64,000 nt of DNA, from the IMG/VR virus record IMGVR_UViG_3300045744_000007, positions 1-64,000 of that record. One strand, 5' to 3'. Positions within the stretch are counted from its first letter, which is position 1. The number at the start of each line of letters is the position of its first letter. The notes under the pieces were generated by a model. That model searched no databases and was not told where the DNA came from. It saw only the letters and a list, made by a program, of their open reading frames with translations. Source of the DNA: a virus. Taxonomy: Duplodnaviria; Heunggongvirae; Uroviricota; Caudoviricetes. The translations under genes were made by a program, and so were the position numbers. Of the stretch, positions 36,651 through 48,896 are shown piece after piece.

Positions 36651-36724
36651 CCGGATGTAGCTCAGCTTGGCAGAGCATCCGCTTTGGGAGCGGAGGGCCG
36701 CAGGTTCAAATCCTGCTATCCGGA
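36651..36724 (+). tRNA. tRNA-Pro (anticodon TGG)
   Basis: cloverleaf: acceptor CCGGATG/TATCCGG, D-arm TAGCTCAGCTTGG, anticodon loop TTTGGGA, T-arm GCAGGTTCAAATCCTGC. Confidence 0.8.
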
Positions 36725-36844
36725 CGTGTGTGGTGACACTACAGTGTCGGCCGTAGAGCGGCTAAGCCCTGAAAGAAAAGACATGGGTGTGCGCCTGGAA
36801 ACAGGAATCGGAATCGTACTCCGAGGCTTCCACACAGTAAGCAG

Positions 36845-36985
36845 GATCTGGTGTAATAGGAGAGGGTTACTTCACATTCGGAGTGAGAGGTCGCAGGTTC
36901 GAATCCTGCCCACCCGACTTCATCGGGTGGTAGCTCAGGTGGAAGAGCGCTAAACGTCACCTTCCCCGCCCTGGATATCAGATCC
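36845..36985 (+). ncRNA. chimeric tRNA-like RNA, family member A (141 nt; carries Arg-TCG anticodon arm, canonical T-arm, then 67-nt insert with a tRNA 5'-half-like segment)
   Basis: termini GATCTGGTGT / ATATCAGATC form 10-bp stem; conserved 5' motif GGTGTAATAGGAGAGGGTTACTTC and 3' motif CCTTCCCCGCCCTGGATATC. Confidence 0.5.
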
Positions 36986-36990
36986 TTCTC

Positions 36991-37062
36991 GCGTACGTGG
37001 TGTAGTTGGTAACACTTCAGACTTCCAATCTGACATCGCAGGTTCGAGTCCTGTCGTACGCT
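36991..37062 (+). tRNA. tRNA-Gly (TCC)
   Basis: acceptor GCGTACG/CGTACGC; anticodon loop CTTCCAA; T-arm GCAGGTTCGAGTCCTGT. Confidence 0.8.
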
Positions 37063-37065
37063 CTG

Positions 37066-37184
37066 TCCTCGGTGTAAAGAAGTGGGCTACTTCGGAAAAA
37101 ACTGATCACTCAGGAGATGGTTCAACCCCATCAACAGGGACTCATAATCCCTGCGTCGCCTGCTTCGACTTGGATATCGAGGAT
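37066..37184 (+). ncRNA. chimeric tRNA-like RNA, family member E (119 nt; T-arm-like hairpin then CAT anticodon arm)
   Basis: termini TCCTCGGTGT / ATATCGAGGA; motifs GGTGTAAAGAAGTGGGCTACTTC and CTTCGACTTGGATATC. Confidence 0.45.
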
Positions 37185-37270
37185 CCTTAGTGGATCTCCC
37201 CGGAGACGGTCACCGGGGACCCGGGCGATAAGTGGGGACACCGGGGCCCTGAGAGGGTGACCTCCTCTGC

Positions 37271-37343
37271 GCCTTCGTAGCTCATCTGGTAGAGCATTCC
37301 CCTCGTAAGGGAAAGGTGCTCGGTTCGAGTCCGAGCGAAGGCT
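37271..37343 (+). tRNA. tRNA-Thr (CGT)
   Basis: acceptor GCCTTCG/CGAAGGC; anticodon loop CTCGTAA; T-loop TTCGAGT. Confidence 0.8.
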
Positions 37344-37479
37344 CTGGGAAGAGGACCGGCTCCAACGTGGGTAGCGCCCGCACCGGAGATATGCCGGGTC
37401 AGGGGTAGATGGGTCCTAGGCAACCCAAGCTGCCGTGGATAATAGCCCGGGAATGGCTGACACTGTTCCTCTTCCTTCT

Positions 37480-37552
37480 GCCCGAGAAGCTCATGAGGAT
37501 GAGCGCCGACTTGGTAGGTCGGAGGTAGCGAGTTCGAATCTCGCCTGGGGCT
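37480..37552 (+). tRNA. tRNA-Thr (GGT)
   Basis: anticodon arm CCGAC-TTGGTAG-GTCGG; T-arm GCGAGTTCGAATCTCGC; one acceptor mismatch. Confidence 0.7.
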
Positions 37553-37555
37553 CTG

Positions 37556-37667
37556 GTCGTGGTGTAATAGGTGAGGGATACTTCTGACTCTTAATCAGAC
37601 GATCCGGTTCGACTCCGGCTAGGGCGTGGGCCTAGTCGTCTCCTTCGCCGCCTTGGATATCACGACT
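37556..37667 (+). ncRNA. chimeric tRNA-like RNA, family member B (112 nt; Lys-CTT anticodon arm, T-arm, extra hairpin)
   Basis: termini GTCGTGGTGT / ATATCACGAC; motifs GGTGTAATAGGTGAGGGATACTTC and CCTTCGCCGCCTTGGATATC. Confidence 0.5.
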
Positions 37668-37671
37668 TCTT

Positions 37672-37744
37672 TGCTCGCTAGGGTAATTGGCATCCCGGCT
37701 GATTCTGGGTCAGTAGATTCCAGGTTCGAATCCTGGGCGAGCAG
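37672..37744 (+). tRNA. tRNA-Gln (CTG)
   Basis: acceptor TGCTCGC/GCGAGCA; anticodon loop TTCTGGG; T-loop TTCGAAT. Confidence 0.75.
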
Positions 37745-37749
37745 CACTA

Positions 37750-37831
37750 GGGCCTAGGAACTAAGGGCCGTGAAGCCAACGGGTGCCTACGGGAGCGCGC
37801 TTCACGTCGGGTTCGACTCCCGATAGGTCCA
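37750..37831 (+). ncRNA. atypical tRNA-like element (acceptor + long hairpin + T-arm; no recognisable D/anticodon arms)
   Basis: acceptor GGGCCTA/TAGGTCC, T-arm TCGGGTTCGACTCCCGA, internal 8-bp stem CGTGAAGC/GCTTCACG. Confidence 0.35.
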
Positions 37832-37839
37832 CGTATCAT

Positions 37840-37912
37840 TGGCGAATGGGGTAATTGGTAGCCCGGTGGATTTTGGTTCCATACGATTCAGGTTCGAGTC
37901 CTGATTCGCCAG
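37840..37912 (+). tRNA. tRNA-Gln (TTG)
   Basis: acceptor TGGCGAA/TTCGCCA; anticodon loop TTTTGGT; T-arm TCAGGTTCGAGTCCTGA. Confidence 0.75.
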
Positions 37913-37915
37913 CCA

Positions 37916-37989
37916 GGAGCGGTGTAATTGACGAGGGTTACTTCTCAGCGGATGAAAACAACACCTTCGTCGCTTTGGATATCGCTCCC
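37916..37989 (+). ncRNA. chimeric tRNA-like RNA, family member C (74 nt minimal unit, no canonical T-loop)
   Basis: termini GGAGCGGTGT / ATATCGCTCC; motifs GGTGTAATTGACGAGGGTTACTTC and CCTTCGTCGCTTTGGATATC. Confidence 0.45.
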
Positions 37990-38154
37990 CAATCTTCCAT
38001 GGCAGACGGTAGAACAATAGTCTGCCCGTGTCGGGGCCCTGGCCTTCACAAAGGGCGCTCGACGGGACCAGGAGGGAAGTGAAGGCTCTCCTGGGGGCCG
38101 TGGTATACCGGAGAGCGATCTAGACGCTCAGGCGGACACTGGACGGCCCATCCT

Positions 38155-38227
38155 GCGGTTGTAGCTCAGTCGGTAGAGCGTCACCTTCCCAAGGTGAATG
38201 TCGCCGGTTCGATCCCGGTCAACCGCT
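38155..38227 (+). tRNA. tRNA-Gly (CCC)
   Basis: acceptor GCGGTTG/CAACCGC; anticodon loop TTCCCAA; T-loop TTCGATC. Confidence 0.8.
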
Positions 38228-38399
38228 CGTGGGCCCTCATAAGCCCAAGATGGGTCATCTTGACCGTTCTGGACCCCGAACTAACTAGAACGCTCTCAAG
38301 AATCCTCGTCGGCCGACGAGGTAGACGTACAGTGAGGTCAGTGTGCTCTCGAAAGCACGGCGGTTGGCTATCCGCCCGAACACCGCTCCTGTGCGTCGT

Positions 38400-38472
38400 G
38401 CGATTGAAGCTCAGTCGGTTGAGCGCCTGCTTGCCAAGTAGGAGGTCGGGGGTTCGAGTCCCCCCAGTCGCT
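38400..38472 (+). tRNA. tRNA-Gly (GCC)
   Basis: acceptor GCGATTG/CAGTCGC; anticodon loop TTGCCAA; T-arm GGGGGTTCGAGTCCCCC. Confidence 0.8.
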
Positions 38473-38534
38473 CTGGATCTGGTGGGCGTAATCGAAACCT
38501 CGGTCTCCGAGGGAGTAGGTCTGCCGGGTCCCCT

Positions 38535-38608
38535 GGCTTCCAAGCTCAGGCTGGGAGAGCGCCCGTCTGAAAAGCGGGAGGTTCAGGGTTCGACCCCCTG
38601 GGGAGCCA
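38535..38608 (+). tRNA. tRNA-Phe (GAA)
   Basis: acceptor GGCTTCC/GGGAGCC; anticodon loop CTGAAAA; T-loop TTCGACC. Confidence 0.8.
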
Positions 38609-38698
38609 CAACCCACCGACTTGACGCCTGGGCCCAGGCGTAAGCGGCCCGCAGCTTGAGTGGGAGTGCCGGTATGGTGTGCGGGTATCCGGCGTTAA

Positions 38699-38772
38699 CC
38701 GCTACAGTCCATCTGGTTGGTGGAACCTGCCTGATAAGCAGGTCGCGCGAGGTTCAACTCCTCGGTAGCGGA
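38699..38772 (+). tRNA. tRNA-Ile (GAT)
   Basis: acceptor CCGCTAC/GTAGCGG; anticodon arm CCTGC-CTGATAA-GCAGG; T-loop TTCAACT. Confidence 0.7.
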
Positions 38773-38834
38773 CTCCTCGCCCCCATCTCGGGCCGCGAGA
38801 AAGCACGGGGGTGGGTCTAGCACCTCCGTGCACT

Positions 38835-38907
38835 GGCCTCGTGTCTGCTGGCATGGCAACCCGGGTTTTCACCCCGGGGCGCAGGGGTTCGATTCCCCTC
38901 GAGGTCA
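38835..38907 (+). tRNA. tRNA-Glu (TTC)
   Basis: acceptor GGCCTCG/CGAGGTC; anticodon arm CCGGG-TTTTCAC-CCCGG; T-loop TTCGATT. Confidence 0.75.
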
Positions 38908-38988
38908 CGCAAGGAAAGACCCCTTGCAGTGCTGGTGACGGTGCGGGGTCAGGGCATCACTGGATCTGGTGCCCTCCCCATCATGGGG

Positions 38989-39017
38989 TTGACCCGGGAC
39001 ACCTCATGAGGTAGTCT
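38989..39017 (+). promoter_or_regulatory. internal tRNA-array promoter TTGACC-N17-TAGTCT (within GTTGAC...GTCAAC inverted repeat)
   Basis: family motif. Confidence 0.5.
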
Positions 39018-39071
39018 GGTGTCAACCCGGTCGGGGATCTGGGAACCAGCCCCGGAGCTGCCGACCGGTAC

Positions 39072-39144
39072 AAGGGCCATAACGGTGATTCGACGGAGTA
39101 GGACCGCATGTCGGAACTCCTTCGGACGAGGGTTCGACTCCCTC
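39072..39144 (+). ncRNA. atypical tRNA-like element (acceptor GGGCCAT/ATGGTCC + T-arm, arms not canonical)
   Basis: T-arm GAGGGTTCGACTCCCTC followed by ATGGTCCA; 5' arm assignment uncertain. Confidence 0.3.
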
Positions 39145-39355
39145 ATGGTCCACGCAAGATCCGACCAAGTAAGGGAGTAAGTGAACGTGCTCTACGCACT
39201 CTTCTCGACCTTCGGCTTCTCCTGGGAGGCTCCGTACCTCGCTGGGAGCCGCTGGGGATGATGAGTCTCTTCGAGGCTCTCATCTGGGGTCTCATCAAGG
39301 CTCCCAGCGGTAACAGTTGGGAGTAGCAGTACCGGGAGCAATGGCGCTCCCTCCT

Positions 39356-39430
39356 GGTCCCTTGGTCTTGTCTGGAGTAGACGCCGGGTTCTCAGCTCGG
39401 AGATCGTGGGTTCGAATCCCGCAGGGACTA
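39356..39430 (+). tRNA. tRNA-Glu (CTC)
   Basis: acceptor GGTCCCT/AGGGACT; D-arm GTCTTGTCTGGAGTAGAC; anticodon loop TTCTCAG; T-loop TTCGAAT. Confidence 0.75.
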
Positions 39431-39518
39431 CTTCGAGGCTCTGGGTGGTACGTGGGCAAGCTGGCTCTTCGGAGGCTGTCCAGCTTGGACGTCAGAGTGT
39501 AAGTTAAACCACCGACGA

Positions 39519-39593
39519 CGCGGAGTAGGGGAGTTCGGTGTCCCCGCTGGGCTCATAACCCAGAGATCGCGGGTTCAAATCCCGTCTCCGCTA
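39519..39593 (+). tRNA. initiator tRNA-fMet (CAT)
   Basis: C1:T72 unpaired end, anticodon stem with three G-C pairs (CTGGG/CCCAG), loop CTCATAA; T-loop TTCAAAT. Confidence 0.75.
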
Positions 39594-39594
39594 C

Positions 39595-39660
39595 GCCGAA
39601 CATCGGAAATCGTGCGAGTCTCATAAGCTTGCTGGCCTGGTTCGATTCCAGGGTTCGGTA
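39595..39660 (+). ncRNA. truncated tRNA-like with CAT anticodon loop immediately after tRNA-fMet (possible Met/Ile2 tRNA with reduced D-arm or pseudogene)
   Basis: acceptor GCCGAAC/GTTCGGT, anticodon arm CGAGT-CTCATAA-GCTTG, T-arm CCTGGTTCGATTCCAGG; D-arm only ~10 nt. Confidence 0.35.
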
Positions 39661-39784
39661 CGAAATCCAGGGTGACCGTATCCGTCCATTAATCCGGCCG
39701 GTAAGTGGGGAGAGGTTCCTGGTAGGTGGTGCAGACAGCATCTCTAAAAGGCGGGGTCGCTCCCTTACCCTCTGTCTGCGTTAC

Positions 39785-39857
39785 ACCCCTCTAGCTCAGT
39801 TGGTAGAGCAGCTGACTCTTAATCAGCGAGTCGTGGGTTCGAGTCCCTCGGGGGGTA
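39785..39857 (+). tRNA. tRNA-Lys (CTT)
   Basis: anticodon arm GCTGA-CTCTTAA-TCAGC; D-arm TAGCTCAGTTGGTAGAGCA; T-loop TTCGAGT. Confidence 0.75.
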
Positions 39858-39871
39858 CGCAAGAAGTTCAT

Positions 39872-39943
39872 TGCTCAGTAGCACAACGGCAGTGCGGCTC
39901 CCTGTTAAGGAGATGGTTACAGGTTCGAATCCTGTCTGAGCAG
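39872..39943 (+). tRNA. tRNA-Asn (GTT)
   Basis: acceptor TGCTCAG/CTGAGCA; anticodon loop CTGTTAA; T-arm ACAGGTTCGAATCCTGT. Confidence 0.75.
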
Positions 39944-39947
39944 CGCA

Positions 39948-40114
39948 AGTGCGGTGTAGAGTGAGAGGGTTACTTCTGCCAACCAGTAGGCCGTGGGTTC
40001 GAGTCCCACCGCGCAGGCCCTCGGGACTGGTGTAGCTCAGAGGAAGAGCGACTGGAATCTACCGGATCAGGCGAGAGCCCCCGGGTCTCCTTCTCCGAAT
40101 TGGATATCGCACTT
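39948..40114 (+). ncRNA. chimeric tRNA-like RNA, family member D (167 nt; T-arm plus tRNA 5'-half-like segment)
   Basis: termini AGTGCGGTGT / ATATCGCACT; motifs GGTGTAGAGTGAGAGGGTTACTTC and CCTTCTCCGAATTGGATATC. Confidence 0.45.
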
Positions 40115-40118
40115 ACAT

Positions 40119-40192
40119 GGGGATGTAGCTCCAATTGGTAGAGCAACTGCTTTGCAAGCAGACGGTTGCCGGTTCGAATCCGGCCATCTCCA
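40119..40192 (+). tRNA. tRNA-Ala (TGC)
   Basis: acceptor GGGGATG/CATCTCC; anticodon loop TTTGCAA; T-arm GCCGGTTCGAATCCGGC. Confidence 0.8.
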
Positions 40193-40316
40193 CTGGATTC
40201 CTATCTGATCGCGACAGACCCTAGAGTTGCTGGAAACGCTGCGCATGAGAGGCGTCTTGTGTGTGGGGTGGGCCAGACTCTTCGAGGTGGCGGCCCCAAG
40301 CTGCTAGGAATCCAGC
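40192..40316 (+). repeat. long-range inverted repeat CTGGATTCCTA ... TAGGAATCCAG enclosing ~100 nt
   Basis: 11-bp arms between tRNA-Ala and tRNA-Asp. Confidence 0.4.
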
Positions 40317-40319
40317 CAT

Positions 40320-40394
40320 GCCGACGTAACTCAGTCTGGTTAGAGTGCCACCCTGTCAAGGTGGAAGTCGCGGGTTCGAGTCCCGTCGTTGGCG
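40320..40394 (+). tRNA. tRNA-Asp (GTC)
   Basis: acceptor GCCGACG/CGTTGGC; anticodon arm CCACC-CTGTCAA-GGTGG; T-loop TTCGAGT. Confidence 0.8.
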
Positions 40395-40446
40395 CTGGAG
40401 GGATCGGTACGGCCAGGAGAGGTTCGATTCCTCTCGTCCCTCCTCT

Positions 40447-40518
40447 TGCCCGGTTAGCTCAGCGGGAGAGCACTGGTTTCACACACCAGGTGTCGGAGGT
40501 TCGACTCCTCCACTGGGT
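40447..40518 (+). tRNA. tRNA-Val (CAC)
   Basis: anticodon arm CTGGT-TTCACAC-ACCAG; T-arm GGAGGTTCGACTCCTCC. Confidence 0.75.
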
Positions 40519-40943
40519 ACTCCGTCCGGGGAGTGGACGGGTTGCGTGAAGGTAGCAAGAACGGTCGGGGTTTACGGGTCTCCGCTCGAAGGCTGGTCAT
40601 GATCTCCTCTGCTGAAACACGGGAGGGAGCCAGACCTGCCTCGACCGCATGGAAGTGCTCCCATTGGCGTGGGAACCGGTCCCGAAAACCGGAGCGGGTA
40701 ACACCGTTGGGGGTTCGAATCCCTCCGCTTCCGCAAGCTGACGTTCCGCGGTTCGATTCCGTGGGGACTGGTTCGAATCCAGTGAGTCGGTTGCTCCCGA
40801 CGTTCCGGATGGCCCGGGGAGGTTCCAACGTCAGCCTTAGTTGTAGCCCGAAAGGCCCCGGGAACGGCCTGGAGGGTGAAAGGTGTCCAGTGCTGCCACC
40901 AGGGCCGTTAGCCCGTCGTGGGTTCCTCAGTGAGTGGCACCGA

Positions 40944-41016
40944 GCCGTCTTAGCCCAATGGCAGAGGCACAGTCTTGAGGAGGCTGACAGTGTGGGTTCG
41001 AATCCCACAGACGGTA
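40944..41016 (+). tRNA. class-I-shaped tRNA with Leu anticodon GAG (atypical: short variable arm)
   Basis: D-arm GCCCAATGGCAGAGGC; anticodon loop TTGAGGA; 5-nt variable loop; T-arm GTGGGTTCGAATCCCAC; A73. Confidence 0.55.
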
Positions 41017-41115
41017 CTCGCCGGTGTCAACGGGGTCAGACTGAGCGATCGTGAACCCCGAAGGCTGCTCATGATCCAGTCTTCCAGTGGGGAGGTAGAC
41101 CTGCATCGGCGTACT

Positions 41116-41187
41116 GCCTCCGTAGCTCAGAGGAAGAGCAGCGAGCTTTTAACTCGCGGGTCGGGATGTCGGAATTCCCCGGGGGCA
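41116..41187 (+). tRNA. tRNA-Lys (TTT) with non-canonical T-loop
   Basis: anticodon arm GCGAG-CTTTTAA-CTCGC; T-loop GTCGGAA lacks TTC. Confidence 0.5.
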
Positions 41188-41192
41188 CATGC

Positions 41193-41265
41193 GGCGCTCT
41201 AGCCCAATGGCAGAGGCGACGGTCTCAAAAGCCGTTCAGTGAGGGTTCGAATCCCTCGGGCGCTA
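41193..41265 (+). tRNA. class-I-shaped tRNA with Leu anticodon CAA (atypical)
   Basis: same D-arm GCCCAATGGCAGAGGC; anticodon loop CTCAAAA; 5-nt variable loop; A73. Confidence 0.55.
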
Positions 41266-41395
41266 CTGACTCTCTCCAGTCGCGAGGAGAGAGGTGGGAA
41301 CAGCTTCGAGCTGATTCGGTGGGACGGGGCAGGCAATCCCGTCCAGTAGACGGAGACGCGCCGCCGCCTTGCCTGAATAGACAGGCTCCAGTCGT

Positions 41396-41479
41396 GGAAG
41401 GTATCCGAACTGGCGAGGAGCCTCGTTGGAAGCGAGGTGCGGAGCAATCCGTTGTGGGTTCGAGCCCCACACCTTCCGC
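41396..41479 (+). tRNA. tRNA-Ser (GGA), class II
   Basis: anticodon arm CCTCG-TTGGAAG-CGAGG; long variable arm; T-arm GTGGGTTCGAGCCCCAC. Confidence 0.75.
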
Positions 41480-41581
41480 AACCGGTTGTCCGGGACTGCC
41501 GTGCGATGGTCAGGCTGAGATGACTGCCGATCGCGTGGAAGGGCTCTGACCGTCTCAGCGGTCAACACCCATCCCGGAATT

Positions 41582-41664
41582 GGAAGCGTGGCAGAGTGGT
41601 AATGCAGCGCCCTGCTAAGGCGTAACGGGTAACACCGTCGCAGGTTCGATCCCTGCCGCTTCCG
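41582..41664 (+). tRNA. tRNA-Ser (GCT), class II
   Basis: acceptor GGAAGCG/CGCTTCC; anticodon loop CTGCTAA; long variable arm; T-loop TTCGATC. Confidence 0.8.
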
Positions 41665-41764
41665 CGCGCTGGAGATCCGGCTTTCCTAAGCTGACGCCAG
41701 CCGGACCCTGGCTACAGGGAAGAGTCAGAGAGAACGAGGAAAATACAAAACCTGTAGTCGCTAG

Positions 41765-41839
41765 CCGACTTAGCCCAATCTGGTAGAGGCGTCCGGTTCA
41801 GGGCCGGAATGTTGAGAGTTCGAATCTCTCAGTCGGTAC
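41765..41839 (+). tRNA. class-I-shaped tRNA with Leu anticodon CAG (atypical)
   Basis: D-arm GCCCAATCTGGTAGAGGC; anticodon arm TCCGG-TTCAGGG-CCGGA; 5-nt variable loop; A73. Confidence 0.55.
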
Positions 41840-41897
41840 GTGAGGCTCAAGAAGCGGGCCCACACCCTCAGATGTCATGAACACAGAAGGGTGACAA

Positions 41898-42320
41898 TTG
41901 AAGCTTCGTATGATTGCTGCGCTCTCCGCAGCGCTGATCGGTATCGGGGTCGCCTCCGCTCCGGCTCAGGCCACCGTCACGAACTACCGATCCACCGGGA
42001 CCTGCACGCTGGCCGGGACGGTTTGGAACCTCACGGATCTGTACCACCGTGACTCCGCGACCGGGAACGTCCAGTCCTTCGGCTTCGCCTTCTCCCGGAA
42101 GTCCGGGACGGGGAAGATCTCGGAGTTGCAGATCACCTGGTCCGGCTCCTCGCCCTCGACCCTGTGGTACGGGATCTGGCCGACCGGGATCACGTCCATC
42201 GGTGACACCTCGTTCACCGCGACTCCGTCGTGGCAGGCCAGCCAGTCGGTCTACTACAACATCACCTCCCCGAGTTCCTCGGGGAACCAGACGACCACCT
42301 GTGCGGTGAACGTCACCTGA
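41898..42320 (+). CDS. secreted protein (signal peptide), paralog A
   Basis: TTG after AGAAGGGTGACAA; signal peptide ...ASAPAQA; YRSTGTC..VGTVWN..LYHRDS core shared with next gene. Confidence 0.65.
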   Translation: MKLRMIAALSAALIGIGVASAPAQATVTNYRSTGTCTLAGTVWNLTDLYHRDSATGNVQSFGFAFSRKSGTGKISELQITWSGSSPSTLWYGIWPTGITSIGDTSFTATPSWQASQSVYYNITSPSSSGNQTTTCAVNVT

Positions 42321-42760
42321 TGCGATTCTCGAAGCTCCGTCTGGGCATCGCCGCGTTTCTGGCCGCGCTCGTCGCTCTGCCCGTCCTCACTGCCGACGCT
42401 GAGGCGGCAGTGGTGGACTACCGATCCACCGGGACCTGCTCGGTCGTGGGGACCGTCTGGAACATGACGAGTCTCTACCACCGTGACTCGACCACCGGGA
42501 GCGTGAAGTCCTACGGCTTCAACGTCTCCCGGAAGTCCGGCACCGGGACGCTCCGGTCGGTCTACGTCGACTGGTACAACCATGGGATCCTCGGGGAGTA
42601 CCTCTATCCGGAGACCGGTTCGTCCAACACGAACACTGGCGACCAGATCTATGGCTGGGCCACCCCGGACTGGGAGGCGTCTCAGCAGCTCATCTTCAAG
42701 ATCTCGTCCCCGAGTTCGGGCGGCACCCGGACGTCGACCTGTCTGATGACGATCACCTGA
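42320..42760 (+). CDS. secreted protein (signal peptide), paralog B
   Basis: ATG overlapping stop; signal peptide ...TADAEAA; same conserved core. Confidence 0.65.
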   Translation: MRFSKLRLGIAAFLAALVALPVLTADAEAAVVDYRSTGTCSVVGTVWNMTSLYHRDSTTGSVKSYGFNVSRKSGTGTLRSVYVDWYNHGILGEYLYPETGSSNTNTGDQIYGWATPDWEASQQLIFKISSPSSGGTRTSTCLMTIT

Positions 42761-42850
42761 CGTCTCTGAATGCGCGGCGCTTCTCTTGCCCTCCTGTTTA
42801 GAGAAGCCCGGCTACTGGGGTGGGCCCGCCCAGGCGCAACACGGGCCATC

Positions 42851-42924
42851 CGGAATGTGGCGCAGCTTGGTAGCGCACTCGGTTCGGGACCGAGAGGCCG
42901 CAGGTTCAAATCCTGCCATTCCGA
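42851..42924 (+). tRNA. tRNA-Pro (CGG)
   Basis: acceptor CGGAATG/CATTCCG; anticodon loop TTCGGGA; T-arm GCAGGTTCAAATCCTGC. Confidence 0.8.
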
Positions 42925-42974
42925 CTGTTCTCTGGGAGGTCCGCAGCTTCCCCGTAGTGGCTCCCAGAGAACTT

Positions 42975-43046
42975 GCCTGGTTAGCTCAGCGGAAGAGCGC
43001 CTGTATGACATACAGGAGGTCCGGGGTTCGACACCCTGACTAGGCA
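42975..43046 (+). tRNA. tRNA-Val (GAC)
   Basis: anticodon arm CCTGT-ATGACAT-ACAGG; T-loop TTCGACA. Confidence 0.75.
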
Positions 43047-43048
43047 CT

Positions 43049-43122
43049 GTGTCTGAAGCTGAAGTGGTCGAAGCGCCGGGATGTGGCCCCGGAGGTAGGG
43101 AGTTCGAGTCTCCTCAGACACC
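43049..43122 (+). tRNA. tRNA-His (GTG)
   Basis: acceptor GTGTCTG/CAGACAC; anticodon arm CCGGG-ATGTGGC-CCCGG; T-loop TTCGAGT. Confidence 0.75.
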
Positions 43123-43126
43123 CCAC

Positions 43127-43155
43127 TTGACTAGTTGACACGAGTGAACTAGACT
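43127..43155 (+). promoter_or_regulatory. promoter TTGACT-agttgacacgagtgaac-TAGACT driving leaderless gene
   Basis: family motif; ATG 7 nt downstream. Confidence 0.6.
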
Positions 43156-43162
43156 CTCCTGC

Positions 43163-43423
43163 ATGAGAGACACAGTCCACTACAAGGTCATCTTCGAGGT
43201 GCGCGAGAAGTACAACATGACTCAGGATCTGGCCCAGGTGGGCTGGGCGAAGTTCGGCAACTTCAACCGGCTCTCGGCCAGAACGTACGAGGTTTCCGGA
43301 ACGAGATGTCTCGACCCGAACCTCTGGCAGTTTCCTGAGGTGCTCATGCACTACGTGCAGTCCGTCTTCAGCGAGATCAAGATCGACATCCTCGAGTTCT
43401 CGATGAAGGTCGAGATCGACTAA
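43163..43423 (+). CDS. hypothetical protein (leaderless)
   Basis: ATG 7 nt downstream of -10 TAGACT. Confidence 0.55.
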   Translation: MRDTVHYKVIFEVREKYNMTQDLAQVGWAKFGNFNRLSARTYEVSGTRCLDPNLWQFPEVLMHYVQSVFSEIKIDILEFSMKVEID

Positions 43424-43701
43424 TGGACACCAAGAAGATCCGATACAGGGCCGTCTTCAAGACCACTCGGCCGCTGGAGCAGGACGAGGCCAAGGCGCTC
43501 TGGGAGCGCTTCGGGGACTTCCATCGAGTCAGCGCCAACAAGTACGCAGTCTCCTCGGAGAGCCTCGCTCCTAGTTGGGCCGTGTTGTCGGTCCTGGCCC
43601 ACGACGTTTGGGTGCGGGTTCTCGATGTCATCGGGCACGTCGCTTTCAAGAACGTGTCGATCCTGGTGGAAGAGGTCGAGGAGGATGACGTTTCAGTCTG
43701 A
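43423..43701 (+). CDS. hypothetical protein (paralog of 43163..43423)
   Basis: ATG overlapping TAA; shared Y.VIF...R..W..FG.F.R.S pattern. Confidence 0.55.
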   Translation: MDTKKIRYRAVFKTTRPLEQDEAKALWERFGDFHRVSANKYAVSSESLAPSWAVLSVLAHDVWVRVLDVIGHVAFKNVSILVEEVEEDDVSV

Positions 43702-43885
43702 GGACGTGTTCACCTTCTGCTTCACGATCGGTGTGGCGCTGTCCCGGCCGCCCCAGGTGGACGAGTACCGGAAGGTCATCCTCACGGCTCCGAACGAGCT
43801 GGAAGCCTGGCAGACCGCTTGCCTGATGGCATCAGCAGGAGCGGTCATGCCGGTGTCCTCGGTGCTGGAGTACGTTGAATTCTGA
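43685..43885 (+). CDS. small protein, start uncertain
   Basis: ATG in frame of track ORF 43625..43885. Confidence 0.35.
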   Translation: MTFQSEDVFTFCFTIGVALSRPPQVDEYRKVILTAPNELEAWQTACLMASAGAVMPVSSVLEYVEF

Positions 43886-44000
43886 GAGAAAGCTGACGGG
43901 TGTGACGAGCCTGGCAGAGCTGTGGACGAGGAGCACGGGACGTCGCCTAACTCTTCTCGTCGCGACAGCACAAGCAGTTGCAGGATGTTGCGGTGCCTGC

Positions 44001-44042
44001 AATGGCTATGGACGAGGGGCTACGCCCCCGGGCCCTCGTCCA
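44001..44042 (+). repeat. 14-bp perfect inverted repeat GCTATGGACGAGGG ... CCCTCGTCCATAGC
   Basis: strong hairpin upstream of tRNA-Tyr. Confidence 0.5.
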
Positions 44043-44047
44043 TAGCC

Positions 44048-44130
44048 GCTCGCGTGGAAACAACCTGGTGGTTGAGGCGGTCTGTAAAACCGTTGCTACG
44101 GCACGGCAGGTTCGATCCCTGCTCCACGCA
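44048..44130 (+). tRNA. tRNA-Tyr (GTA), class II
   Basis: acceptor GCGTGGA/TCCACGC; anticodon loop CTGTAAA; 12-nt variable arm; T-loop TTCGATC. Confidence 0.7.
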
Positions 44131-44303
44131 CGTCAAGGGCACTAGCTCTTGGAAGTGGGACTGGTAGGCGTCCGGAAGGTCGCTGAGCCAGGTTCCTGCG
44201 GGATGCGACCTCCTGTCGGTGGAGGCTTTCGGATGCCAGTACGAGGCTGAGTGGTTGCACCCGCTCAGTAGCGCCGGTCGAGACGGCAATCTCGACCGGA
44301 CAC

Positions 44304-44375
44304 CGCACTGTGGGAGAACGGCGATCCAGCAGACTGCAAATCTGTTCCATGCCGGTTCGAGTCCGGCCAGTGCGT
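44304..44375 (+). tRNA. tRNA-Cys (GCA)
   Basis: acceptor CGCACTG/CAGTGCG; anticodon loop CTGCAAA; T-arm GCCGGTTCGAGTCCGGC. Confidence 0.75.
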
Positions 44376-44388
44376 CTCAGAGCACTAG

Positions 44389-44417
44389 TTGACAAGAAGC
44401 AACCAGGCTGCTAGAGT
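44389..44417 (+). promoter_or_regulatory. promoter TTGACA-N17-TAGAGT driving leaderless gene
   Basis: family motif; ATG 7 nt downstream. Confidence 0.6.
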
Positions 44418-44424
44418 TCTGGTC

Positions 44425-44736
44425 ATGGGAGACAACGAGAACAGCCAGAGCGGCGGGGCCCTCCAGAACAACGTGGTCTACGCCTTTGCAGTCGGTGACA
44501 AGCTGATCGGGTCCTTCGTCCGGACCGGTGAGCCGATGAACCGGACCTATCACGTCAGCAACGGGGACGGGGAGGAGATCGGGCACGTCACGCGGTACCG
44601 GTACGTTGAGGCCATCCTCATGGTCCTGCTCCGGGACGCGATGATCGACACGGTGGTGGAAGAGGTCGAGGCCCCCAAGCTCATCGCGGATCTGGAGAAG
44701 TTCCTCGCCAACCCCATGGAGGGCTCCGATGGGTGA
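44425..44736 (+). CDS. hypothetical protein (leaderless)
   Basis: ATG 7 nt downstream of -10 TAGAGT. Confidence 0.5.
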   Translation: MGDNENSQSGGALQNNVVYAFAVGDKLIGSFVRTGEPMNRTYHVSNGDGEEIGHVTRYRYVEAILMVLLRDAMIDTVVEEVEAPKLIADLEKFLANPMEGSDG

Positions 44737-45250
44737 GGTGATCCGGAAGGACTTCTACAACGATCCCGACGCTCCGGTGGTGACCGACAAGAAGATCGGC
44801 TACGCCGCGAACGTGTACGTCCGGCATGGTCACTACGTCCTGGTCCAGCAACGGTCGGACAACGGCCAGTGGGCCCTCCCGGGGGGAATGCAGGACCCGG
44901 GCGAGTCCATCACCGAGACGGCGGTCAGGGAGTGTTTCGAGGAGACGGGGATCGAGGTCGAGATCAAGAGGCTGATCGGGGTCTACTCGGACCCGAAGCA
45001 CATCGTCGCCTACTACCGGGACGGTGAACTGCTCGGGGCGAGCCAGGAGGCTTCCATGCTCTTCTACGCGTACCCGATCGGGTCGCTGGAGACGAGGGCC
45101 AGTTCCGAGTCTTCGATCGTGGGCTGGTGTCCTGAGGAGCTGGTTCTCGACCTGGACATGGCTCCTTCGATGAAGAGGAGAATCGAGGACGCACTGAGTC
45201 CCCGCTGGCACAACGTTCCGATTCTTTTCCCGCCGGTAGGTGCATCGTGA
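44729..45250 (+). CDS. NUDIX hydrolase
   Basis: Nudix box GGMQDPGESITETAVRECFEETGIEVE. Confidence 0.75.
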   Translation: MGEVIRKDFYNDPDAPVVTDKKIGYAANVYVRHGHYVLVQQRSDNGQWALPGGMQDPGESITETAVRECFEETGIEVEIKRLIGVYSDPKHIVAYYRDGELLGASQEASMLFYAYPIGSLETRASSESSIVGWCPEELVLDLDMAPSMKRRIEDALSPRWHNVPILFPPVGAS

Positions 45251-45438
45251 AGACTTGGGTTTCGTTGGTGCTGATCCTCGTCGGAGCTACGGTCTTCGTG
45301 TTCGGTGGGGCGTACTTGGGTGTGAAGTGGCAGACGAAGCAGGACGAGCAGACTTGTTCTGCCCTTCACGGAGAGCGCATCAAGTACGTGAAGTCTCGCG
45401 CGCTCTGCCTGGATTCGGAAGGCCGAATTCTCAACTGA
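45247..45438 (+). CDS. small membrane protein
   Basis: GTG overlapping stop; TM helix; followed by hairpin. Confidence 0.5.
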   Translation: MKTWVSLVLILVGATVFVFGGAYLGVKWQTKQDEQTCSALHGERIKYVKSRALCLDSEGRILN

Positions 45439-45447
45439 AAGACCGGG

Positions 45448-45466
45448 CCGAAAGGCCCGTAACTCC
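45448..45466 (+). terminator. small hairpin GGGCCGAAAGGCCC after gene
   Basis: 5-bp GC stem, GAAA loop. Confidence 0.4.
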
Positions 45467-45536
45467 GCTTAGCTCAGTTGGAGAGAGCGCCACGCTACGA
45501 ACGTGGAGGCCGGGGGTTCGAGTCCCTCAGCGGAGG
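45462..45536 (+). tRNA. tRNA-Arg (ACG)
   Basis: acceptor CTCCGCT/AGCGGAG; anticodon arm CCACG-CTACGAA-CGTGG; T-loop TTCGAGT. Confidence 0.8.
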
Positions 45537-45537
45537 C

Positions 45538-45606
45538 TCAAGGCAAGGTTGGCTTAGGCGCGGCCAGGCAAGGTCTGGCTGGGTGCGGTTAGGTAGGGCA
45601 TGGGTT
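45538..45606 (+). repeat. GG-periodic repeat tract ending GGCATGGG
   Basis: same unit family. Confidence 0.5.
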
Positions 45607-45681
45607 CCACTGGAAAATAGAGAAAGGAGCGCGTCGTGCTATAGGCGCGAACCGTTCGCGCTGAGAGGAGATCTCAGCGAA

Positions 45682-46017
45682 ATGAGCCGAACTGACAAGA
45701 CCAGCCCTAGTTTCGTCAAGGCGTTGCGGCGCGAGGGCGCGACGATTAGCCACGACCACCGGGACGGGGTCTGCAACCTGGGAGTTCACTCCTGGTGGGG
45801 ACCGCGTCGGGATGCCGACTGGGGCTATCACTGCGACATCTACGTCGATGCGTACTCCTACCCGGGAAGCAAGGAGTGGCCGCGCCCCCGGTCGGTGAAG
45901 TGGGAGACGAAGAAGTGGCACCGTGCCGCCCGTAGATCGGCGAACGTCGAGCTGGCGAGGGGCGAGGAGCCTGAGCCGCTCAGGACCCGGAGGCGTGTGC
46001 TCTGGGACACCTACTGA
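45682..46017 (+). CDS. Cys/His-rich protein (paralog of 35204..35488)
   Basis: ATG; begins MSRTDKT. Confidence 0.55.
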   Translation: MSRTDKTSPSFVKALRREGATISHDHRDGVCNLGVHSWWGPRRDADWGYHCDIYVDAYSYPGSKEWPRPRSVKWETKKWHRAARRSANVELARGEEPEPLRTRRRVLWDTY

Positions 46018-46026
46018 AAGTAAGTA

Positions 46027-46099
46027 CGGCCTGTAGCTCAGAGGAAGAGCTGCGCTTTCCTAAAGCGCGAGTCGGAGGTTCGAATCCTCTCAGGCCGAC
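46027..46099 (+). tRNA. tRNA-Arg (CCT)
   Basis: acceptor CGGCCTG/CAGGCCG; anticodon loop TTCCTAA; T-loop TTCGAAT. Confidence 0.8.
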
Positions 46100-46186
46100 G
46101 CAAGGCAAGGTCGGGCTCGGTGAGGTCCGGCTAGGCGTGGCGCGCTACGGTGGGGCGCGGTATGGAATGGCGAGGCATGGGTTTCA
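46100..46186 (+). repeat. GG-periodic repeat tract ending GGCATGGG
   Basis: same unit family, between tRNAs. Confidence 0.5.
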
Positions 46187-46259
46187 CGGCCACTGGTCCA
46201 ATGGATAGGGCACCTGGCTTCTACCCAGGATGGTGGGGGTTCGAATCCCTCGTGGCCGA
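46187..46259 (+). tRNA. tRNA-Arg (TCT)
   Basis: acceptor CGGCCAC/GTGGCCG; anticodon arm CCTGG-CTTCTAC-CCAGG; T-loop TTCGAAT. Confidence 0.8.
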
Positions 46260-46261
46260 CG

Positions 46262-46362
46262 TGAGTGGTATGGCGGGGCTAGGTTAGGCACGGCCTGGTC
46301 GGGAGTGGCCCGGTATGGCTAGGTTAGGTCTGGCGTGGAGGGGCGCGGTATGGAACACCCCG
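46262..46362 (+). repeat. GG-periodic repeat tract ending GGTATGGAACAC
   Basis: same unit family. Confidence 0.5.
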
Positions 46363-46372
46363 GAGGTTGACG

Positions 46373-46600
46373 TTGGACTGCACGGTCGAGAAGCGTCGTC
46401 GTCCGGTCGGGGGAAACTGGGCTTACGCTCAGCCCTGGCGAGTTGTCTGCCCTGAGTGTGCTCAGCACATCAAGGGGAAGGATTTCCATAGCCCGCCACC
46501 AGGCTTCAGTTTTCACACCGTCTTCCACACCCGGAAGCAAGCAAAGGACGCCCTCCACGCGCACTACGTGGAGGTTCACGGCGGGCCCCGGAAGGCGTAA
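46373..46600 (+). CDS. Cys/His-containing small protein
   Basis: TTG 9 nt after GGAGG; CPECAQH motif. Confidence 0.45.
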   Translation: MDCTVEKRRRPVGGNWAYAQPWRVVCPECAQHIKGKDFHSPPPGFSFHTVFHTRKQAKDALHAHYVEVHGGPRKA

Positions 46601-46721
46601 GCCTGGGAGATCGGACCTGGCTCGGGCATAGGCTGCGCACCGCTCACGAATGCGATCGGTCGGCTGACGTGCGCTGGCGAGCTAAGGCCGGGGAGGTTCG
46701 ACTCCTTCCCCCGCCACACAG

Positions 46722-46750
46722 TTGACAAGAGTGAACTAGCGAGCTAGTAT
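46722..46750 (+). promoter_or_regulatory. promoter TTGACA-agagtgaactagcgagc-TAGTAT driving leaderless gene
   Basis: family motif; ATG 7 nt downstream. Confidence 0.6.
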
Positions 46751-46757
46751 TTCACTC

Positions 46758-46979
46758 ATGGAAACCACGCCGAACCTGCTCCAGCAGGCCAAGGGACAGG
46801 CCGCGAAGGCTGTCTCCAAGCAAGTGTGTGTCGAGGGCGAGGACGTCTACTTCCTGGAGGACACCAAGGCCAGGAAGCCCGGACACATCTACTCCCGGGC
46901 CGGTCTTCGGGAGTACGGAACCAGTGGTTGTTGTGAGTACCACTTCGATCTGTTCTTCGGGGAACCCGAGGAAGAGTAA
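46758..46979 (+). CDS. hypothetical protein (leaderless)
   Basis: ATG 7 nt downstream of -10 TAGTAT. Confidence 0.5.
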   Translation: METTPNLLQQAKGQAAKAVSKQVCVEGEDVYFLEDTKARKPGHIYSRAGLREYGTSGCCEYHFDLFFGEPEEE

Positions 46980-46981
46980 GG

Positions 46982-47040
46982 CGGGGCTTGGCTAGGTCGG
47001 GTAGGCCAGGGTTGGGCATTGGAACGGCATGGCATGGAAG
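46982..47040 (+). repeat. GG-periodic repeat tract ending GGCATGGAAG
   Basis: same unit family. Confidence 0.5.
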
Positions 47041-47044
47041 TCAT

Positions 47045-47119
47045 CTCCTCGTAGCGCAGTACGGATAGCGCGTCCCCCTCCGGAGGGGAAGGTCGCAGGT
47101 TCAAATCCTGCCGAGGAGG
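47045..47119 (+). tRNA. tRNA-Arg (CCG)
   Basis: acceptor CTCCTCG/CGAGGAG; anticodon loop CTCCGGA; T-arm GCAGGTTCAAATCCTGC. Confidence 0.8.
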
Positions 47120-47121
47120 CT

Positions 47122-47200: not shown

Positions 47201-47270
47201 CGGTGCACTGTTCTAGATAATTACACCGCCCGGTGTAAAAGCATTGTGGATATCGGGAGGAGACACAGAA

Positions 47271-48896
47271 ATGGCAAAGATCAACGTCAAGAAGACCACG
47301 GCCCCGCTGAGAGGTCCGATCCGTTCCCTGAGCACGTTCCCGGACACGGCGACCTTCGAGGGTGCGAACGCCTATAGGCGTGACGCGAAGTCCGACCTGT
47401 TCCTGCTCGGAGCCTCGCTGTTCTCGGGTGAGGGCTCGTTCTACGAGACGGCAGAGGTTCGGGACGAGCGGTTCGTCACGCTCGTGAGAGAGGTCGCATC
47501 CCAGGACCCGGTGTGGATCGGGAAGTTCCTGGAGTGGCTGCGGTCGGTGGGCAACATCCGGACCGCCTCCATCATCGGGGCGATCGAGGCTGGTCGTGTG
47601 ATCAGCAAGATGTTCGCCAACGGTCAGGCGACCACCGAGGTCTCGGCGCGTTCCGTGCTGGCTTCGGTGTTGCAGAGGGCCGATGAGCCAGGTGAGGCCG
47701 TCGCCTACTGGAACGCCCACTACAGCGACGAGAAGCGGCCGAAGTGGTTCCGGCGTGCTCTGGGCGACGGTGCGGCGAAGCTCTACAGTGAGTACAGCGT
47801 CCTCAAGTACGACACCGACGCGTACAGCGTCCGGTTCGCGGACGTGCTGGCCGTGGCTGAGCCGGTGGGCGAGAAGGACCGGCCGCTCTACCTGTGGATC
47901 ATGAACCGGGGCAAGAAGGCCAACCGGCACCCGGAGCACGGACTGTTCTCCAACCCTCGGGTGGGGGACTTCTCCGAGGCTCTGCCGATGGCCGTGTTCG
48001 CTGAGCGGTTGAACAAGATGCCGAAGGACGAGGCTCGGGCGCTGTTGCTCAGTGGTCGGGAGTCGGAAGTTGCCAAGAAGGGCGGCCTCACCTGGGAGCA
48101 GTTGTCGGGCTTCGGGGCGATGGACAAGGCTGCCTGGGAGGCCGTGATTCCGAACATGGGATTCATGGGCCTGTTGAGGAACCTGCGGAACTTCGACCGG
48201 GCCGGGATCTCGAAGGCGAGCCAGGACTACGTGATCAACTACCTGACCGACCCGGCCAAGGTGGCGAAGTCGCGTCAGCTCCCGTTCCGGTTCCTGTCGG
48301 CGTACCTCGCTGCCGGGGACTCGGACACCTGGCGGGCTCCGTTGGGCGAGGCGCTGGACCTGGCGACGTCGAACATCCCGGACGAGCTGGGGGGTTCGAC
48401 CTTCATCGTCCTGGACACCAGTGCCTCGATGTTGGATCCGTTGTCCGAGAAGGGCTCGGTGTCGATGCACATGGCGGGGGCGGTCTTCGCCGCTGCGCTG
48501 GCGAAGAAGGCGAAGGGAGCGGTCCGGTTCGTGGAGTTCGCCACCACGGCCAAGGAGATCAAGCTGTCTCCGACCGCTTCGGTGCTCAAGCTGGCGTCTG
48601 ACTCCGTCGCTCGGAGTGGGCATGTGGGGCACGGAACCGACCTGGCCGGGGCGCTGCGGCTCTACCAGGGGGAGTCGAGAGTGATCATCTTCAGCGACTT
48701 TCAGACCAGCAGCTACGTCTACACCTCGAAGATCACGGCTCCGACGTATGGGTTCAATCTGGCAGGCTACGAGCCGACGATCGTGCCTGGTGGGAACTCG
48801 AACTGGGTCGAGCTGGGTGGCTTGTCCGACAGCACCTTCAAGATCATCCCGATCTTGGAGGAGCGCAAGCAGGGCAAGTGGCCGTGGGAGGCGTAG
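47271..48896 (+). CDS. rsr: Ro60/Rsr-like RNA-binding protein (TROVE-like helical domain + vWA domain)
   Basis: ATG after GGGAGGAGACACAG; ~540 aa, N-terminal alpha-helical region and C-terminal vWA with MIDAS DTSAS (FIVLDTSASM); architecture and size match bacterial Rsr. Confidence 0.55.
   Translation: MAKINVKKTTAPLRGPIRSLSTFPDTATFEGANAYRRDAKSDLFLLGASLFSGEGSFYETAEVRDERFVTLVREVASQDPVWIGKFLEWLRSVGNIRTASIIGAIEAGRVISKMFANGQATTEVSARSVLASVLQRADEPGEAVAYWNAHYSDEKRPKWFRRALGDGAAKLYSEYSVLKYDTDAYSVRFADVLAVAEPVGEKDRPLYLWIMNRGKKANRHPEHGLFSNPRVGDFSEALPMAVFAERLNKMPKDEARALLLSGRESEVAKKGGLTWEQLSGFGAMDKAAWEAVIPNMGFMGLLRNLRNFDRAGISKASQDYVINYLTDPAKVAKSRQLPFRFLSAYLAAGDSDTWRAPLGEALDLATSNIPDELGGSTFIVLDTSASMLDPLSEKGSVSMHMAGAVFAAALAKKAKGAVRFVEFATTAKEIKLSPTASVLKLASDSVARSGHVGHGTDLAGALRLYQGESRVIIFSDFQTSSYVYTSKITAPTYGFNLAGYEPTIVPGGNSNWVELGGLSDSTFKIIPILEERKQGKWPWEA

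Follow-up and report, generated by a model that had tools for sequence, protein, structure and literature searches.

A 64,000-nucleotide (nt) stretch of a Caudoviricetes virus record (IMG/VR record IMGVR_UViG_3300045744_000007, positions 1–64,000; the whole of it is called the window here) carries three tRNA genes with the leucine anticodons GAG, CAA, and CAG on bodies that have a short variable loop in place of a long variable arm. A first-pass annotation had proposed that these were either phage-specific leucine isoacceptors or tRNAs that deliver a different amino acid at leucine codons. We conclude that they are very probably (roughly 85%) functional type I (class I, short-looped) tRNA-Leu isoacceptors of the same structural family as the type I tRNA-Leu encoded on the chromosomes of Actinomycetota. 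The short variable loop did not arise as a phage innovation but is a trait of a bacterial tRNA-Leu lineage that already existed, and the trio represents a known type in a typical large-actinophage tRNA array: neither a new code nor a phage invention. The three genes, with their positional parses, are as follows.

40944–41016, + strand: type I tRNA-Leu(GAG), reading CUC and CUU; variable loop ACAGT, G37, G1.U72, A73; C74 encoded at 41017; parse GCCGTCT TA GCCCAATGGCAGAGGC A CAGTC TTGAGGA GGCTG ACAGT GTGGGTTCGAATCCCAC AGACGGT A

41193–41265, + strand: type I tRNA-Leu(CAA), reading UUG; variable loop TCAGT, A36-A37-A38, G1.U72, A73; C74 encoded at 41266; parse GGCGCTC TA GCCCAATGGCAGAGGC G ACGGT CTCAAAA GCCGT TCAGT GAGGGTTCGAATCCCTC GGGCGCT A

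41764–41838, + strand: type I tRNA-Leu(CAG), reading CUG; variable loop ATGTT, G37, G1.U72, A73; C74 encoded at 41839; parse GCCGACT TA GCCCAATCTGGTAGAGGC G TCCGG TTCAGGG CCGGA ATGTT GAGAGTTCGAATCTCTC AGTCGGT A

ARAGORN called all three, with C74 inside each range (Leu(gag) 40944–41017, Leu(caa) 41193–41266, Leu(cag) 41764–41839). The Rfam tRNA model (RF00005) agreed, matching over its full length at 55.1 bits for the GAG gene, 55.4 for CAA, and 54.7 for CAG (gathering score 29; E values of ~1e-9). In the positional parse, no stem is broken and none of the conserved tertiary positions is missing. The anticodon loops have 7 nt each, with U33 and a purine at position 37 (TTGAGGA, CTCAAAA, TTCAGGG), and the rule for position 37 that holds in ordinary Leu tRNAs and in the rest of the type I family is kept: G37 accompanies NAG anticodons and A37 accompanies NAA. 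The variable loops have 5 nt each (ACAGT, TCAGT, ATGTT), and the total lengths are 73–75 nt; none of the three possesses the variable arm of at least 10 nt, forming a stem-loop, that characterizes a canonical class II tRNA-Leu. Their cores are nonetheless of the leucine type, each having U8:A14 (T8/A14 in the DNA), a D stem of 3 base pairs (bp) with a C13/A22 mismatch, an AAU(N)GG(C/U)AGA D loop, and A15:U48. Each acceptor stem opens with a G1.U72 wobble (first bases at 40944, 41193, and 41764, paired with 41015, 41264, and 41837) and is followed by A73; of the CCA end, C74 alone is encoded.

Much of what the first-pass annotation described was therefore borne out by ARAGORN, Rfam, and the parse, namely three tRNAs with short variable arms, these three leucine anticodons, 5-nt variable loops, and A73. 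Its coordinates were correct for the GAG and CAA genes; the third gene begins at 41764, not 41765. The D-arm that it took to be common to all three, TAGCCCAATGGCAGAGGC, is identical in the GAG and CAA tRNAs, but the D-arm of the CAG tRNA, GCCCAATCTGGTAGAGGC, differs from it by one C-to-T change and a 2-nt insertion, which makes its D loop 2 nt longer. An alternative fold presenting a different anticodon, which that annotation had named as one result that would overturn its view, did not emerge: no fold put another triplet into a 7-nt loop closed by a 5-bp stem. Its remark that the array lacks a class II tRNA-Leu holds for the window, which is part of the source record and to which the absence applies. 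The long-armed tRNAs that ARAGORN and Rfam find there are Ser(gga), Ser(gct), Tyr(gta), and a Ser(cga)-like candidate, none with a Leu anticodon.

The same scaffold is widespread. We scanned IMG/VR and bacterial genomes for the D-arm 18-mer TAGCCCAATGGCAGAGGC; both counts are lower bounds, and all figures given from these scans, here and below, are for the matches listed. The 18-mer occurs in at least 120 IMG/VR phage contigs and in at least 120 bacterial contigs, the latter nearly all from Actinomycetota and including complete chromosomes; carriers include Microbacterium, Arthrobacter, Nonomuraea, Nocardioides, Micromonospora, and acI and Ilumatobacteraceae lineages. The tRNAs that bear it are 73–77 nt long on both sides. 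Leucine anticodons are found in all 119 of the genomic tRNAs (95 UAA, 18 UAG, 3 CAA, 2 CAG, and 1 AAG) and in 109 of the 111 viral ones. At 109 of the 119 bacterial loci with a tRNA call, this tRNA is the only one in its 8-kb stretch. In the 1.46-Mb genome of Actinobacteria bacterium IMCC26103, for example, the lone type I tRNA-Leu(UAA) sits in a housekeeping neighbourhood, adjoining UDG, ppx, DUF501, ftsB/DivIC, eno (enolase), and mazG.

These chromosomal genes form a coherent structural family. In an alignment of 43 distinct members, the cloverleaf is paired in 99.4% of pair cells, as compared with 37–50% in slid controls; compensatory changes occur in 15 of 20 pairs, and the covariation score was reached by no shuffle. 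A15:U48 is present in 103 of 107 family sequences and C13/A22 in 104 of 107, figures whose D-arm part follows partly from how the sample was constructed. We built a covariance model (R1) from the 43 chromosomal genes alone, whose anticodons are UAA, UAG, and, in one case, CAA. Its three best matches in the window were the GAG (83.6 bits), CAA (81.5 bits), and CAG (61.5 bits) tRNAs; tRNA-Arg(tct) came next at 55.2 bits, and all other window tRNAs scored 48 bits or less. In global comparisons, the closest tRNAs in the collection to each window gene were type I tRNA-Leu (79–84% identity), and the best non-Leu tRNAs reached 72–76%. By its anticodon loops, 5-nt variable loops, Leu-type core, and top R1 scores, the trio belongs to the type I tRNA-Leu family. 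Common to the window and chromosomal genes are C13/A22, A15:U48, an xxAGU variable loop, A73, and a length of 73–74 nt, and two of the three window tRNAs have the D-arm TAGCCCAATGGCAGAGGC of the chromosomal tRNA-Leu(UAA/UAG) without a change. Whereas the chromosomal genes stand alone and read UUA/UUG or CUA-type codons in our sample, the phage copies lie in an array and read the abundant CUG, CUC, and UUG.

Precedent for charging comes from Streptomyces coelicolor, in which four type II tRNA-Leu coexist with a single type I tRNA-Leu(CAA) bearing the variable loop A44-C45-A46-G47-C48 (Fan et al. 2019, NAR 47:6369, PMC6614811). The single leucyl-tRNA synthetase of this organism (ScoLeuRS; LeuRS for the enzyme in general) was shown experimentally to leucylate both types; on type I it requires U8:A14 and a five-nt variable loop, it reads C74 and not A73, and its ability to charge type I is conferred by its leucine-specific domain (PMC6614811). 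The elements important to ScoLeuRS are present in the window trio, whose 5-nt variable loops are near the tested ACAGC (ACAGT and TCAGT in the GAG and CAA genes) and which also have U8:A14 and C74. G18G19 and an A73 followed by C74 are further common points, and both the S. coelicolor and the window tRNAs are taken to be read by a LeuRS that ignores the anticodon, on the window side by homology. The window genes differ in being phage-encoded, in bearing GAG and CAG anticodons besides CAA, in having U48 as opposed to C48, and in starting with G1.U72 in all three cases.

Several assumptions of the first-pass annotation need revision in this light. Its premise that bacterial tRNA-Leu is normally class II is incomplete, type I tRNA-Leu being found on actinobacterial chromosomes. 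That the trio are leucine isoacceptors is well supported; that they are phage-specific is wrong, for the same scaffold is a lone chromosomal gene in many Actinomycetota. The charging via A73 that it proposed is at odds with S. coelicolor, in which other elements count (PMC6614811).

Short-looped tRNA-Leu has surfaced elsewhere. A Mycobacterium tRNA cluster includes a short-loop tRNA-Leu(TAG), mentioned in passing (Behra et al. 2019, PMC6582537). Judged by description alone, it resembles the window genes in being cluster-encoded, actinobacterial, and short in its variable loop beside normal long-armed isoacceptors; unlike them, it lies in a bacterial genome. A study of MenT3 names only tRNA-Leu-2, -3, and -5 of M. 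tuberculosis as long-looped (PMC11541572). The remaining tRNA-Leu of that species would, by this account, be short-looped. Animal mitochondria likewise have a type I tRNA-Leu whose variable loop is short and which has A73, charged by a LeuRS that does not need the arm. The window trio shares those two features; however, the mitochondrial tRNAs have degenerate D and T loops, whereas the trio has canonical G18G19 and a TTCGAAT T loop (GTTCGAAT from G53). This resemblance is convergent and does not amount to membership. The human mitochondrial tRNA-Leu(UUR) is not charged by ScoLeuRS (PMC6614811).

Type I tRNA-Leu is also widely distributed among phages. A blastn search with the first of the three tRNAs matched 84 phage records, and every match listed with an annotated feature bore the label tRNA-Leu. 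The hosts of these phages are Streptomyces, Mycobacterium, Rhodococcus, Gordonia, Thermobifida, Lactobacillus, Prochlorococcus, and Myxococcus, and a gut phage was matched as well; the short-armed form was confirmed in phages P-RSM6, Bacchae, Mx1, Phass-1, and Jay2Jay. The best phage-record match to the window, and its nearest cultured relative, is Microbacterium phage Magritte (OR553905), at 36.5% amino-acid identity over the whole DNA polymerase I. Magritte has the same order of DNA polymerase I, RecA, tRNA array, and Ro gene, and the same three Leu anticodons. Its Leu(cag) is type I (74 nt, D-arm GCCCAATGGTAGAGGC, G1.U72), but its Leu(caa) and Leu(gag), of 85 and 84 nt, are class II, whereas the window has type I bodies for all three. 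The same Leu anticodons are thus served by both body types in related phages. Among the matches listed in the genome sample, type I tRNA-Leu with a CAG or AAG anticodon was found within multi-tRNA arrays only, never alone, an indication that the scaffold was carried over to these further leucine anticodons by phages or mobile arrays. Such a spread is possible because LeuRS ignores the anticodon. The G1.U72 wobble occurs in 55% of viral and 25% of chromosomal type I tRNA-Leu; among the other class I tRNAs of the same loci, its share is 13%. We found no description of a phage type I tRNA-Leu in the literature searched, which is not proof that none exists.

The anticodons of the trio suit the phage. 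We counted 8,817 codons in 22 open reading frames (ORFs) of the + strand with a third-position GC content of at least 0.76, six of which have Pfam matches marking real genes. The leucine codons divide into CTG 52.6%, CTC 28.0%, TTG 10.8%, CTT 7.5%, CTA 1.1%, and TTA 0%; CAG, GAG, and CAA together read 98.9% of them. In the course of events that we envisage, the trio would be transcribed from the array during infection and processed, and the host’s CCA-adding enzyme would complete the CCA ends, for which the genes provide C74. A host LeuRS of the actinobacterial type, blind to the anticodon and accepting a 5-nt variable loop, would then leucylate all three, as homology to the S. coelicolor system predicts. 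The CAG tRNA would decode CUG, the GAG tRNA CUC and CUU, and the CAA tRNA UUG, a match to codon use that is observed. A phage LeuRS in the window was ruled out: ORFs of at least 700 amino acids comprise only DNA polymerase I, a radical-SAM protein, and one that lacks Pfam matches.

A number of points count against this interpretation. The S. coelicolor tRNA-Leu(CAA) is the only type I form whose leucylation has been demonstrated (PMC6614811), and our comparison with that tRNA uses its described elements, the text of the paper giving only the variable loop of its sequence. The LeuRS of E. coli cannot charge the S. coelicolor type I tRNA-Leu (PMC6614811), so charging depends on the host’s enzyme. 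We take the host to be an actinobacterium only from the 62.5% GC content of the window, the distant kinship to Magritte, and the 88.6% match of a tRNA-Lys in the array to one from a Rhodococcus phage; if the host is something else, its LeuRS may not accept the trio. Because the sequences were collected by the D-arm motif, the conservation of the D-arm, including the invariance of the D stem, is circular. The CAG tRNA leads tRNA-Arg(tct) by only 6 bits on R1. Finally, the minimum-energy folds of the single sequences lie 3–4 kcal/mol below the cloverleaf and are rearranged in the D and anticodon regions. Minimum-energy folds other than the cloverleaf are usual for unmodified tRNA sequences, and we accord these folds no weight against the comparative evidence.

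Could the short arm itself be a phage adaptation? On this account, it would not simply be inherited from the host but would allow the tRNAs to escape host enzymes that grip the long variable arm, such as MenT-type nucleotidyltransferases and Schlafen-like nucleases. Such enzymes exist: MenT3 anchors on the long variable loop (PMC11541572), and Schlafens cleave type II tRNAs (PMC13191261). However, MenT3 prefers tRNA-Ser over tRNA-Leu (PMC11541572), and no variable-arm-dependent nuclease was found in the window, where no search aimed at one was made. Short forms account for 144 of the 155 Leu tRNAs in the IMG/VR loci, but this proportion is biased, as the viral loci were chosen by the type I D-arm motif. 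GC content is below 45% in 67 of the 120 motif-bearing viral loci; yet low-GC acI actinobacteria also carry the chromosomal type I gene, and low GC therefore does not prove a non-actinobacterial host. Also in favour of an adaptation are the type I tRNA-Leu genes in the gut phage and in phages of Prochlorococcus, Lactobacillus, and Myxococcus. To our knowledge, these three hosts have class II tRNA-Leu only. The presence of the scaffold in such phages, taken with its rejection by E. coli LeuRS, raises the question of how it is charged there and why phages favour it. The confinement of type I CAG and AAG tRNAs to multi-tRNA arrays in the genome sample points the same way, as does the occurrence of type I bodies at all three anticodons in the window phage and at one in Magritte. 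Nevertheless, an actinobacterial host with a native type I tRNA-Leu explains the window data with no need of a defence story, and we consider the adaptive account unlikely. In its broadest form, type I tRNA-Leu would be a portable, phage-favoured scaffold that has displaced class II Leu in many unrelated lineages, unseen by arm-dependent host enzymes yet acceptable to LeuRS. We hold that proposal to be similarly doubtful; if it is true, the window phage, all three of whose leucine anticodons sit on type I bodies, would be an end point of class II replacement.

There is less to be said for the trio as non-translational tRNA-like elements or decaying pseudogenes, that is, decoys, processing punctuation, or integration-site remnants. 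Some members of the array are indeed aberrant (a tmRNA-like stub, a tRNA-Lys(UUU) whose T loop is odd, and a Ser(CGA)-like candidate bearing C33), and G1.U72 weakens the top of the acceptor stem in the trio itself. The same wobble, though, occurs in a quarter of the chromosomal members, and the intact stems and full set of conserved tertiary positions, the high Rfam and family-model scores, and an anticodon set that matches the phage’s leucine codon usage almost exactly make decay or decoy function quite improbable.

Recoding tRNAs are known, among them the Ashbya mitochondrial tRNA-Ala(UAG), the yeast mitochondrial tRNA-Thr(UAG), and the CUG-clade tRNA-Ser(CAG). Two features might hint at something of the kind here: a class I body is unusual for leucine in most bacteria, and the unusual G1.U72 is present in all three genes. 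The identity marks of other synthetases are nevertheless missing from the trio. Position 3:70 is C:G in all three, in place of the G3:U70 that marks substrates of alanyl-tRNA synthetase; the long arm or G73 that marks those of seryl-tRNA synthetase gives way to a short variable loop and A73; the anticodon loops have 7 nt, not an enlarged 8; and most other synthetases recognize anticodon bases that the trio lacks, according to rules reviewed in PMC9976931 and taken here without an enzyme-by-enzyme check. The leucine codons of the window’s RecA, read in the standard code, can be aligned with E. coli RecA at 20 positions, of which 17 hold L, I, V, or M in that protein. In columns on which 80% or more of 119 RecA homologues concur, these codons coincide with Leu in 9 cases out of 10, a small sample; the homologues may include related phages, and we give the E. 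coli comparison more weight. Since the trio reads 98.9% of the leucine codons, or about 9% of the total, no protein would escape damage from mischarging. With the same scaffold serving as the lone tRNA-Leu(UAA) at the motif site of IMCC26103 and a type I tRNA-Leu proven as a leucine acceptor in S. coelicolor (PMC6614811), we reject the first-pass suggestion that a synthetase other than LeuRS charges the trio, which would then insert a different amino acid at leucine codons, as extremely improbable.

Annotation of the three genes as tRNA-Leu is justified, and nothing in the window points to an altered code. A 2023 review describes tRNA-Leu as long-armed everywhere except in animal mitochondria (PMC9976931). 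This textbook long-arm rule, as repeated there, breaks down in much of the Actinomycetota and in many phages; false alarms are to be expected in both from scans that treat a class I tRNA with a Leu anticodon as an anomaly.

The array in which the trio lies, and the gene at its end, are located as follows.

36651–47120, + strand: tRNA array of 33 ARAGORN tRNAs plus Rfam-only candidates, between replication/recombination genes and the Ro60/TROVE gene

47244–48896, + strand: Ro60/TROVE protein gene, at the end of the tRNA array

Proteins encoded in the window include DNA polymerase I, RecA, a beta clamp, clamp-loader subunits, a PD-(D/E)XK nuclease, the radical-SAM protein, and the Ro60/TROVE protein. 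A search of IMG/VR for relatives of the Ro60 protein, aimed at arrays not chosen by the Leu motif, gave no match. When the DNA of the region was compared with phage records at near identity, no relative emerged; the sole match was the tRNA-Lys of Rhodococcus phage Dorin. The corresponding gene in the window, tRNA-Lys(UUU) (41116–41187, + strand), lies between two of the Leu tRNAs and is 88.6% identical to the annotated tRNA-Lys of Dorin. It scored 47 bits with Rfam, was missed by ARAGORN, and has an aberrant T arm, GGGA UGUCGGAAU UCCC. Nearly all of the array tRNAs end in a single C instead of CCA, the full CCA being encoded only in Gln(ttg) and His(gtg); most of them thus depend on a CCA-adding enzyme.

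The Ser(CGA)-like class II candidate (40651–40732, + strand) was found by Rfam only. It has a Ser-type acceptor stem, G73, and the loop CCCGAAA, with C33 instead of the near-universal U33, and it would read UCG, the commonest serine codon of the phage (38%). This segment is a tRNA-Sec-like match in Rfam and was considered as the missing class II Leu; its acceptor stem, G73, and CGA anticodon rule that out.

Other RNA-like elements are dispersed through the array. An 82-nt segment (39074–39155, + strand) resembles transfer-messenger RNA (tmRNA): it matches only the two ends of the Rfam tmRNA model, at 40 bits (below the gathering score of 47), and has a T arm and an acceptor stem, GGGCCAU/AUGGUCC, with G3:U70, but neither a tag reading frame nor pseudoknots. 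ARAGORN called no tmRNA in the window. Two segments (36886–36951 and 39985–40053, both + strand) match YrlA-like Y RNA, but at 34.6 and 24.6 bits neither reaches the gathering score; the former is a permuted tRNA mimic, its fold running from a T arm through a closing stem to a D arm.

Two observations concern loci outside the window. In IMCC26103 (CP015604), the D-arm motif lies at 1630–1647 of the examined locus (L123), and the chromosomal tRNA-Leu(UAA) there stands beside the eno, ftsB, DUF501, and ppx group. The Streptomyces bldA gene, a type II tRNA-Leu(UAA), is presumably located near the same eno/ftsB/DUF501/ppx group, which would make the two body types positional counterparts. A contig of a Chloroflexaceae metagenome-assembled genome (JAAUSQ010000001, 16001–24000) has 24 tRNA genes, including short Leu (caa, taa, cag) and a call with a 4-base anticodon (tcta); it is probably a phage or mobile tRNA array that was binned into the genome.

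Streptomyces phage Jay2Jay (NC_029098), in the stretch examined, resembles the window in having a Ro gene within its tRNA array. It encodes two tRNA-Leu(tag) of 75–76 nt, and a full 283-nt tmRNA lies downstream of the array. An annotated tRNA-Tyr(gta) of 72 nt with a short variable loop (NC_029098 95284–95355; 19456–19527 of locus L241) adjoins an ordinary 83-nt tRNA-Tyr, and this short gene may be a second actinophage example of a class I body that carries a class II isotype.

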